From the IMG/VR virus record IMGVR_UViG_2693429679_000007: a DNA stretch of 5,717 nucleotides; one strand, given 5' to 3'. This stretch comes from a virus (taxonomy: Duplodnaviria; Heunggongvirae; Uroviricota; Caudoviricetes). How positions within the stretch are numbered: the first letter of the stretch is position 1; each line of letters begins with the position of its first letter. The translations under genes and the position numbers were made by a program. The notes beneath the pieces are model-generated. The model saw only the letters and a list, made by a program, of their open reading frames with translations. It made no database searches and was not told the DNA's origin. Below, piece after piece: positions 1 through 5,717 of the stretch.

Positions 1-1781
<1,781 letters not shown>

Positions 1782-1782
1782 N

Positions 1783-2694
1783 CCTATAACCGCAGTAATG
1801 TGGTGATGCCGGATGATGGCGCGCCGTTCCGCTACAGTTTCAGCGCCCTGAAAGACCGCCATAATGCCGTTGAGGTGAACTGGATTGACCCGGATAACGG
1901 CTGGGAGACGGCGACAGAGCTTGTGGAGGATACGCAGGCCATTGTCCGTTACGGTCGTAACGTCACGAAGATGGATGCCTTTGGCTGTACCAGCCGGGGG
2001 CAGGCACACCGCGCCGGGCTGTGGCTGATTAAAACGGAACTGCTGGAGACGCAGACCGTGGATTTCAGCGTGGGTGCTGAAGGGCTTCGTCATGTACCGG
2101 GCGATGTCATTGAAATCTGCGATGATGACTATGCCGGTATCCGCACCGGCGGGCGCGTGCTGGCGGTGAACAGCCAGACCCGGACGCTGACGCTCGACCG
2201 TGAAATCACGCTGCCATCCTCCGGCACCACGCTGATAAGCCTGGTTGACGGGCAGGGGAATCCGGTCAGCGTGGAGGTCCAGTCCGTCACCGACGGCGTG
2301 AAGGTAAAAGTGAGCCGTGTTCCTGACGGTGTTGCTGAATACAGCGTGTGGGGGCTGAAGCTGCCGACGCTGCACCAGCGATTGTTCCGCTGCGTGAGTA
2401 TCCGTGAGAACGACGACGGCACGTATGCCATCACCGCCGTGCAGCATGTGCCGGAAAAAGAAGCCATCGTGGATAACGGGGCGCACTTTGACGGCGACCA
2501 GAGCGGCACGGTGAATGGTGTCACGCCGCCAGCGGTGCAGCACCTGACTGCCGAAGTCACCGCAGACAGCGGGGAATATCAGGTGCTGGCGCGCTGGGAC
2601 ACGCCGAAGGTGGTGAAGGGCGTGAGCTTCCTGCTCCGTCTGACCGTAACAGCGGATGACGGCAGTGAGCGGCTGGTCAGCACGGCCCGGACGA
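1783..2694 (+). CDS. J: Protein J internal fragment, allele 2 (homologous to window positions 665-1576), frame +3, bounded by ambiguous bases on both sides
   Basis: Track ORF 1800..2720 ([46 protein letters not shown]...) is the same J region as 667-1576 but diverged: by hand count about 37 nt differences in 912 bp, giving 7 amino-acid changes (IRTGGRV for ISIGGRV, SGTTLISLVDGQGNP for [21 protein letters not shown] for [18 protein letters not shown] for [12 protein letters not shown]). The offset to copy 1 is a constant 1118 bp with no indels. The ORF's apparent end at 2720 is produced by the N run and a frame change. Confidence 0.85.
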
Positions 2695-2700: not shown

Positions 2701-4212
<1,512 letters not shown>

Positions 4213-4213
4213 N

Positions 4214-4483
4214 ATGCCATCACCGCCGTGCAGCATGTGCCGGAAAAAGAAGCCATCGTGGATAACGGGGCGCACTTTGACGGCGACCAGAGCGGCACGG
4301 TGAATGGTGTCACGCCGCCAGCGGTGCAGCACCTGACTGCCGAAGTCACCGCAGACAGCGGGGAATATCAGGTGCTGGCGCGCTGGGACACGCCGAAGGT
4401 GGTGAAGGGCGTGAGCTTCCTGCTCCGTCTGACCGTAACAGCGGATGACGGCAGTGAGCGGCTGGTCAGCACGGCCCGGACGA
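4214..4483 (+). repeat. Exact 270-bp direct duplicate of 2425-2694 (allele 2 of J)
   Basis: Compared block by block with no mismatch seen; the shared reverse-strand ORF text ([39 protein letters not shown] in 1767..2543 and 3850..4941) reflects the same overlap. Confidence 0.8.
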
Positions 4484-5717
4484 CGGAAACCACTTACCGC
4501 TTCACACAACTGGCGCTGGGGAACTACAGGCTGACAGTCCGGGCAGTAAATGCGTGGGGGCAGCAGGGCGATCCGGCGTCGGTATCGTTCCGGATTGCCG
4601 CACCGGCAGCGCTGTCGCGGATTGAGCTGACGCCGGGCTATTTTCAGATAACCGCCACGCCGCATCTTGCGGTTTATGATCCGACGGTACAGTTTGAGTT
4701 CTGGTTCTCGGAAAAGCGGATTGCGGATATCAGGCAGGTTGAAACCACAGCACGCTATCTTGGCACGGCGCTGTACTGGATAGCCGCCAGTATCAATATC
4801 AAACCGGGCCATGATTATTACTTTTATATCCGCAGTGTGAACACCGTTGGCAAATCGGCATTCGTGGAGGCTGTTGGTCAGCCGAGTGATGATGCATCCG
4901 GTTATCTGGATTTTTTCAAAGGCGAGATAGGGAAAACCCATCTGGCTCAGGAGCTGTGGACGCAGATTGATAACGGTCAGCTTGCGCCTGACCTGGCTGA
5001 AATCAGGACGTCCATTACGGATGTCAGCAATGAAATCACGCAGACCGTCAATAAGAAACTGGAAGACCAGAGTGCGGCAATTCAGCAGATACAGAAGGTT
5101 CAGGTTGATACAAATAATAACCTGAACAGCATGTGGGCTGTGAAGCTGCAGCAGATGCAGGACGGACGCCTTTATATCGCGGGTATTGGTGCCGGTATTG
5201 AGAACACCCCTGACGGCATGCAGAGTCAGGTGCTGCTGGCGGCGGACAGGATTGCGATGGTTAATCCTGCGAATGGCAACACAAAACCGATGTTTGTTGG
5301 TCAGGGCGATCAGATATTCATGAACGACGTGTTCCTGAAACGCCTGACGGCCCCCACCATTACCAGCGGTGGAAATCCATCGGCATTTTCCCTGACTCCG
5401 GACGGAAAGCTGACCGCTAAAAATGCGGATATCAGTGGCAGTGTGAATGCGAACGCCGGGACGCTCAACAATGTCACGGTAAATGAAAACTGTACGATTA
5501 AGGGCATGCTGGAGGCGACTCAGGTCAGAGGTGACTTCGTTAAAGCTGTATCCAAATCATTTCCGAAACAGGCTGGTACGTGGGGTAACACGGAAACACC
5601 AAACGGGACGGTTACAGTCACCATAAGCGATGATCATAACTTTGACCGCCAGATTATTATTCCGCCCATTATTTTTAACGGTATAGCGTATGACGATCCG
5701 GGGAGCGGAAATAACCC
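4214..5717 (+). CDS. J: Protein J fragment, allele 2 (re-starts at the position equivalent to 2425 of the second fragment), frame +1, 3' end beyond the window; not in the ORF track because it runs off the window
   Basis: I translated frame +1 from 4213 to 5717 by hand and found no stop: (Y)[188 protein letters not shown]...[96 protein letters not shown]...[135 protein letters not shown]. Bases 4214-4483 are identical to 2425-2694. Confidence 0.88.

Follow-up and report, generated by a model that had tools for sequence, protein, structure and literature searches.

Which outer-membrane protein does a lambda-like phage recognise when the end of its central-fibre protein J departs from that of lambda? 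The question is raised by the last bases of a 5,717-base stretch of viral DNA (the window, by which we mean the whole stretch analysed). An earlier note on this DNA, made from the letters alone, described the second of two J alleles as entering at position 5521 a C-terminal region unlike the LamB-binding end of lambda J, and suggested that this allele may use a different outer-membrane receptor. In lambda, cryo-EM of the J trimer revealed an alpha-helical shaft, a beta-prism and three Ig-like receptor-binding domains (RBDs), whose distal loops L1-L4 enter the LamB trimer; on binding to LamB the RBD bases move apart and the prism twists, until at last the tail tip opens and the DNA can be ejected (PMC11101478). 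The loops L1-L4 were named by Ge and Wang (2024) without residue numbers.

Window layout and domain architecture

The window is non-contiguous, being made up of four pieces split by N at 1782, 2695-2700 and 4213 (Table 1). Piece C contains the final 750 nt of piece A (100% identity) and runs on past its end. Piece D stands in the same relation to piece B, whose final 270 nt it shares (also 100%), and A and B are 95.9% identical across their overlap. The window is two alleles of one J gene, allele 1 consisting of A and C and allele 2 of B and D, and the open reading frames that span the Ns are artefacts. The layout of the pieces resembles unresolved prophage-repeat contigs placed together in a scaffold.

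Both alleles are stop-free throughout (847 codons in allele 1, 714 in allele 2) and, judged by their similarity, are homologues of the lambda tail-tip or central-fibre protein J. The frame 4216-5717 contributes 500 codons without a stop, and its translation is letter-for-letter identical to the allele 2 peptide quoted in the earlier note. Piece D is 98.9% identical at the nucleotide level, over all 1504 nt, to the gpJ gene of E. coli Z1323PEC0014, and allele 2 shares 98.3% amino acid identity with the J protein of phage phi458. Two ORFs in alternative frames, 5483-5626 (+) and 5310-5507 (-), were disregarded because the J frame is backed by homology over its whole length.

The Pfam scan of 4216-5717 detected PF24421, PF24489, PF09327 and PF12421, in that order and all over the curated cut-offs. 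One ORF therefore holds Ig_J, Ig_J_second, Phage_Tail_Tip and Ig_GpJ_C, which is the canonical lambda-like J order. J of the closest relatives (phi458, the E. coli 4/1-1 prophage, 434, mEp460 and WGPS6) is a tail-cluster gene that follows I/K/L/M and precedes lom/stf. PF12421 (Tip attachment protein J, C-terminal receptor binding domain) is matched at profile positions 1-47 of 135 by residues 445-490 (nt 5548-5685), in agreement with the earlier suggestion that this part of the protein is the receptor-recognition module and that the window ends before the domain is complete. Judging from the relatives, about 81 residues and the stop codon (about 246 nt) would be absent past 5717, and by analogy the continuation is expected to read ...PGGTRYTGYGFEVRKNGVLIASRETKGAIPGSYSAVIDMPSG(R/G)GSVTLEFK...KKAASGISIR*. 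The full-length J proteins of phi458 and the E. coli 4/1-1 prophage complete the domain as ...PGGTRYTGYGFEVRKNGVLIASRETKGAIPGSYSAVIDMPSGRGSVTLEFK...KKAASGISIR*.

Table 1. Coordinates of the pieces of the window and of the J features described in the text
Feature	Position	Strand	Remarks
Piece A	1-1781		Split by Ns
Piece B	1783-2694		Split by Ns
Piece C	2701-4212		Split by Ns
Piece D	4214-5717		Split by Ns
End of piece C (allele 1)	4093..4212	+	Already 434-type; stops at N 4213, just short of the RBD
Piece D, 3' portion of J allele 2	4214..5717	+	Frame from 4216, without a stop up to the window end
Two Ig-like/FNIII domains of J	4291..4917	+	Ig_J aa 26-130 (E 2.5e-42), Ig_J_second aa 134-234 (E 6.6e-39), 4216 frame
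Phage_Tail_Tip domain (alpha-helical shaft and beta-prism of the central fibre)	5077..5463	+	PF09327, E 2.8e-31
Zone where similarity to lambda J collapses and similarity to 434 J persists (boundary of the RBD-end module)	5490..5520	+	Sliding identity
First 62 residues of the 434-type RBD (after QVR)	5521..5717	+	Cut by the window end
First hairpin, 14 residues	5566..5607	+	Alignment to phi330 918-921; same length as in 434
Start of second loop, 10 residues (PGG)	5686..5717	+	Aligned with phi330 E953-S962; cut by the window end

Class of the receptor-binding end

The genome of phage 434 is public (OL657226; PMC9119081), and we read the C-terminus of its J protein straight from that record (UMO75286.1). 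The 65-residue tail of allele 2 aligned without gaps to residues 992-1056 of 434 J with 61 of 65 positions identical (93.8%), and was identical at all 65 positions (100%) to gpJ of the E. coli 4/1-1 prophage, at 64 of 65 (98.5%) to phi458 J and at 95.4% to WGPS6. The same tail reached 26/54 (48%) in a local alignment with lambda J, 30/64 (47%) with phi330 J and 44% with phage 21 J. The full 143-aa RBD of the closest full-length relatives of the window is 94-97% identical to that of 434, 35.6-36.2% to lambda and 40-42% to phage 21 and phi330. In BLAST comparisons with phage and complete E. coli genomes, the window end was colinear with and 93-99% identical to annotated J genes, including those of phi458 (98.7% over 818 nt), cdtI (97.2%) and the E. 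coli 4/1-1 prophage (99.7% over the last 318 nt); further relatives are Ayreon, ev099, mEp332 and Stx-converting phages.

By its sequence, 5521-5717 codes for the N-terminal first third of a J RBD that belongs to the phage 434 (h434) class and is truncated where the window stops. The yardstick for this class was near-identity to 434 J residues 992-1137, loop lengths included. The J gene of the lambda h434 imm21 hybrid (OM418627) begins (nt 1) as lambda sequence, which lasts to about nt 2100, and is 434 sequence from about nt 2150 onwards to its stop, RBD included; this confirms that the window ending is the classical h434 host-range module. The module has been sequenced in phage 434 and its receptor long established, and nothing here is new in kind. 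High identity to lambda J residues ~990-1132, which include the four distal loops that insert into LamB, was looked for and was absent, the loop regions carrying indels. Neither was there high identity to the C-terminus of A8 gpJ (9WCA) or phi330 J, the value over the RBD being about 41%.

These comparisons agree with most of what had been read from the letters. The lambda J sequence cited in the earlier note was exact, as NC_001416 reads ...NCTINGTLRAEKIVGDIVKAASAAFPRQRESSVDWPSGTRTVTVTDDHPFDRQIVVLPLTFRGSKRTV..., and the tail does differ from lambda J as described; the end that had been named as evidence to the contrary, a full-length C-terminus closely matching the LamB-binding end of lambda, is in the relatives about 36% identical to it over the RBD. 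The 15-residue stretch before 5521, called conserved, is common to both alleles and to 434, while lambda differs from it (NCTINGTLRAEKIVG). Three points escaped the earlier note: the ending belongs to the classical h434 host-range type, whose sequence was already available; it is very common; and allele 1 shares it. The idea of a receptor other than LamB is supported, yet it belongs to the textbook host-range biology of lambdoid phages.

The fold was tested on P0003 (248 aa, full-length RBD, 98% identical to the query), the window itself holding the first third of the domain only. The AF2 model of P0003 had a mean pLDDT of 78.6, with the RBD blocks mostly at 85-96, and its Foldseek top matches were 9wca, 8xck, 8xcj and 9wcb, all at probability 1.00, which are closed and open central-fibre structures of A8 and lambda gpJ. 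Since 9wcb is the A8 gpJ RBD bound to OmpC, the J RBD fold is one capable of direct OmpC binding. Among PDB sequences, the completed domain matched A8 gpJ best (E 2e-73), followed by lambda gpJ (E 2e-65).

Predicted receptor

Phage 434 uses OmpC (PMC12502783), and a lambda equipped with the J protein of 434 binds this same porin (PMC3509688, PMC11101478). An RBD of the 434 type, together with the reported use of OmpC by 434, leads to OmpC as the predicted receptor of the window allele. We conclude that the J allele most likely recognises OmpC and not LamB, with a probability of about 0.8; class and fold are taken from the comparisons above, and OmpC use is inferred for allele 2 from the 434 literature. 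The lambda h434 hybrid (OM418627) also has the 434 side tail fibre gene; as it carries both 434 J and 434 Stf, the hybrid sequence alone cannot separate the two, and it is the cited literature that points to J.

Three copies of J would form a beta-prism fibre ending in three Ig-like domains, as in lambda, and the distal loops of these domains would dock into a trimeric outer-membrane porin. With loops of the phage 434 type, the porin bound would most likely be OmpC rather than LamB. Docking to OmpC would then be expected to bring about tail-tip opening and DNA ejection, as it does with LamB in lambda.

OmpC-dependent lambdoid mEp phages have been reported from the Mexican mEp collection (PMC11893012), and we found in mEp460 an RBD of the window's class at 97.2% identity and no annotated cor gene between J and int. 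Taken together, these points lend indirect support to OmpC as the receptor. Phages of the class plaque on K-12 hosts (e.g., phi458 on MC1061), and we found in the literature no receptor experiment on a phage with the exact sub-variant of the window (SFPKQAG…PNG). The SNIPE paper on the PhiR/mEp332 temperate phage panel reports dependence on ManYZ and does not report outer-membrane receptors, and a 2026 receptor-screen preprint deals with a Drexlerviridae-type GpJ and calls the lambda C-terminal domain not comparable.

Receptor choice in the lambda-like J family is labile, and a few substitutions can switch it. The native receptor of phage 21 is LamB and a single J mutation adds OmpC (PMC11336670), while A8 and 1A2, which are engineered gpJ chimeras, differ in the OmpC alleles that they accept (PMC11338833). 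In the Stx siphophage phi330, the need for OmpC was demonstrated by knockout and complementation (PMC12502783). The RBDs of phage 21 (J 5457-6176 of the compared segment) and phi330 are 80.4% identical, yet the two phages use LamB and OmpC, respectively, so that RBD class at about 80% identity is no guide to the receptor. A transfer of OmpC use from phi330 by way of WGPS6, which is the closest relative of phi330 and has the RBD class of the window, was considered and dropped because the RBD of phi330 J (PV189401) is of another class (41%).

Distal loops and variation within the class

The distal loops are the parts of the domain where a difference in receptor would be looked for, and the window covers the first of them and the start of the second; the third falls past the window end. 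In a published AlphaFold3 model of the 434 J trimer on trimeric OmpC, 434 has an additional contact loop that is far shorter in phi330 (T918-Y921) (PMC12502783). We aligned phi330 TSTY (918-921; phi330 numbering verified) with the first hairpin of the window, to which the extra loop with predicted OmpC contact consequently maps. This segment folds as a beta-hairpin in the AF2 model of P0003, and it exceeds its lambda counterpart by 2 residues and those of phi330 and phage 21 by 6. The second loop aligns with the phi330 hairpin that was modelled pointing into the OmpC barrel (E953-S962; PMC12502783), and it holds D81 and D82, both of which vary among members of the class.

Variation was scored in an alignment of 18 protein clusters of the class with the window tail and 434 J. 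Only a few positions vary (36, 40, 41 and 51; 81 and 82; 147; plus 131, 140 and 142), and many of them lie in or beside the three loops. There are two common first-loop haplotypes, SFPKQAG…PNG in the window and phi458 and AFPKKVG…P(D/N)G in 434, and other polymorphic loop positions in the class are D/S/T81, D82x and G/R/W147. It is conceivable, though we hold it doubtful, that the haplotypes and the other polymorphic loop positions are specificity variants for different OmpC alleles or give access to a second porin. The RBD of lambda h434 (OM418627) has two differences only from that of 434, D82N (AYDDPG->AYDNPG) and R147W (GNQRAG->GNQWAG), and its departure from 434 at two such polymorphic positions is suggestive of loop specificity. 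If this is true, the loop variants would be a natural record of an arms race between J and OmpC. Both sites are polymorphic in natural members of the class too and are situated in the predicted receptor-contact loops; D82N and R147W may be host-range adaptations that lambda h434 acquired in the laboratory.

The same variation provides the strongest alternative to OmpC use in general, namely that the RBD is 434-like and that this sub-variant binds a porin other than OmpC (LamB, OmpF or some further outer-membrane protein) or is restricted to particular OmpC alleles. Between the window and 434 there are four substitutions (S/A, Q/K, A/V and N/D) in 62 RBD positions, and three of the four (K->Q, V->A and D->N from 434 to the window) fall in the first hairpin, which is predicted to touch OmpC; polymorphism of the class is concentrated in the three loop regions, and small changes do switch receptor or receptor allele in this family (the one mutation of phage 21 from LamB to OmpC, A8 versus 1A2, and phage 21 versus phi330). 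The substitutions are, however, conservative, and both SFPKQAG and AFPKKVG are carried by a great many E. coli prophages and by phages able to plaque on K-12. Moreover, RBD identity to 434 in the full-length relatives, at 94-97%, is far over the 80% at which a receptor difference has been documented, and we consider a change of porin or a restriction to certain OmpC alleles rather unlikely.

Module boundary and mosaic structure

Scanned in sliding windows of 30 nt, allele 2 matched lambda at 24/30 positions at 5483, at 17/30 at 5498 and at 9-22/30 from there on, whereas identity to 434 was steady at 24-30/30 across the same zone. For the boundary zone 5490-5520 itself, the values past 5498 were 14-16/30 for lambda, and 434 held 27-29/30. 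The drop at about 5498 places the module boundary near 5495, about 25 nt upstream of 5521, and the divergence from lambda therefore starts earlier than had been proposed. It is also not particular to allele 2, as had been assumed: over its final 120 nt (4093-4212), allele 1 is identical to 434 J at 119 of 120 positions and to lambda at 93 of 120, so that allele 1 is heading into a 434-type end as well.

The upstream part of the fibre is of different origin in the two alleles. Over 5018-5273, sliding identity of allele 2 was 27-30/30 to phage 21, phi458 and WGPS6 and 8-21/30 to lambda and 434; its shaft/prism (~4958-5300) is of the phage-21/phi458/WGPS6 type, 28 residues longer than the lambda/434 type that is found in allele 1 (3660-3960). 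The shafts of alleles 1 and 2 differ, yet both alleles converge on 434-type sequence ahead of the RBD. This convergence of alleles with different shaft/prism modules indicates that J is mosaic at sub-gene scale, and allele 2 reads as a natural mosaic of a phage-21/phi458-type shaft and a 434-type RBD.

At about 47%, the GC content of the segment coding for the 434-type RBD is lower than that of the remainder of J (about 57%) and of the lambda RBD (55%), a difference that fits an exchangeable module of separate origin. We observed a GC content of 47-48% in the RBD-coding segments of 434-, 21- and phi330-type J genes, including window positions 5414-5717. The GC difference from the lambda RBD, consistent with a separate module, bears on the possibility of plain drift from a lambda-type, LamB-binding end. 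Such drift would agree with the fold and with the order of conserved motifs (DDHxFDRQ, DMPxGxG, KKxxxGIS), which are as in lambda, but it is hard to reconcile with an RBD identity to lambda as low as 36%, with the indels that all three distal loops carry and with near-identity to another, characterised class, that of 434; we regard a drifted lambda end as very improbable. An artefact of assembly or stitching, in which unrelated reads were joined into a chimera at the window end, has next to no probability as the origin of the divergent tail: the window is indeed stitched from four overlapping two-allele pieces joined by Ns, and pieces D and C have no 100% match in complete E. coli genomes (best 98.9% and 99.1%), but the junction of the fibre with the 434-type RBD lies inside piece D and not at an N, the same arrangement is colinear in real genomes over all 1504 nt (98.9%) and in phi458 over 818 nt (98.7%), and the reading frame is open throughout.

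Prevalence and significance of the 434-type module

The 197 nt of 5521-5717 were matched in 2,095 of 5,426 complete E. coli genomes (~39%), with 2,808 matching places in all and no more than 7 in any one genome. Nucleotide identity was mostly 90-95%, and matches of at least 95% were found in 25 genomes only. J-like genes overall were detected in about 4,600 of the 5,426 genomes. Phage records with the RBD at 90% or more amino acid identity numbered 74 and include cdtI, mEp460, ev099, Tritos and Stx1a-, Stx2a-, Stx2c- and Stx2d-converting phages. The 434-type module is a known one and is among the commonest J endings in E. coli prophages. Its presence lets the receptor of the source prophage be predicted as OmpC and not LamB, and a prediction of this sort is useful for host-range annotation and for the engineering of lambda-based delivery particles.

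Comparison with other J proteins

The J protein of phage 434, or the h434 allele (OL657226, OM418627), has the RBD class, the loop lengths and the boundary with the conserved fibre in common with the window; it differs in having a lambda-type shaft, in place of the longer shaft of the phage-21/phi458 type in allele 2. Lambda gpJ (8XCJ/8XCK) has a homologous Ig-like RBD that ends a trimeric beta-prism, matches PF12421, shares the framework motifs and presumably uses the same trigger. Its identity to the window class is about 36%, its distal loops are of other length and sequence, and its receptor is LamB rather than OmpC.

A8 gpJ and phi330 J (9WCA/9WCB; PMC12502783, PMC11338833) are lambda-like proteins whose RBD uses OmpC, and a structure with OmpC exists; A8 gpJ, by way of PDB 9WCA, belongs to the phi330-like RBD class. 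That class is distinct from the window's (about 41% identity) and has a first loop shorter by 6 residues, and OmpC use common to A8/phi330 and the window class would run through non-homologous loop sequences. Phage 21 J is related to allele 2 in the shaft/prism (~4958-5300; 27-30/30 per 30-nt window) and not in the RBD, which is of the A8/phi330-like class (80% identical to phi330, 40% to 434) and has LamB as native receptor.

WGPS6 and phi330, Pankowvirus Stx2a phages described as mutual closest relatives, carry RBDs of the 434 type and the A8/phi330 type, respectively, a swap of the RBD in two near-identical phages. The phi330 J gene (17482-20610 of the compared segment) is annotated as 1,042 aa starting internally with V, and a separate 116-aa ORF (17195-17545) is located upstream; the split annotation looks like a frameshift or a sequencing error in the record. 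In E. coli 4/1-1, a gene for a TIR-domain anti-phage reverse transcriptase (11395-12317 of the compared segment) was found downstream of the tail fibre genes, beside the end of the prophage with the tail-identical J.
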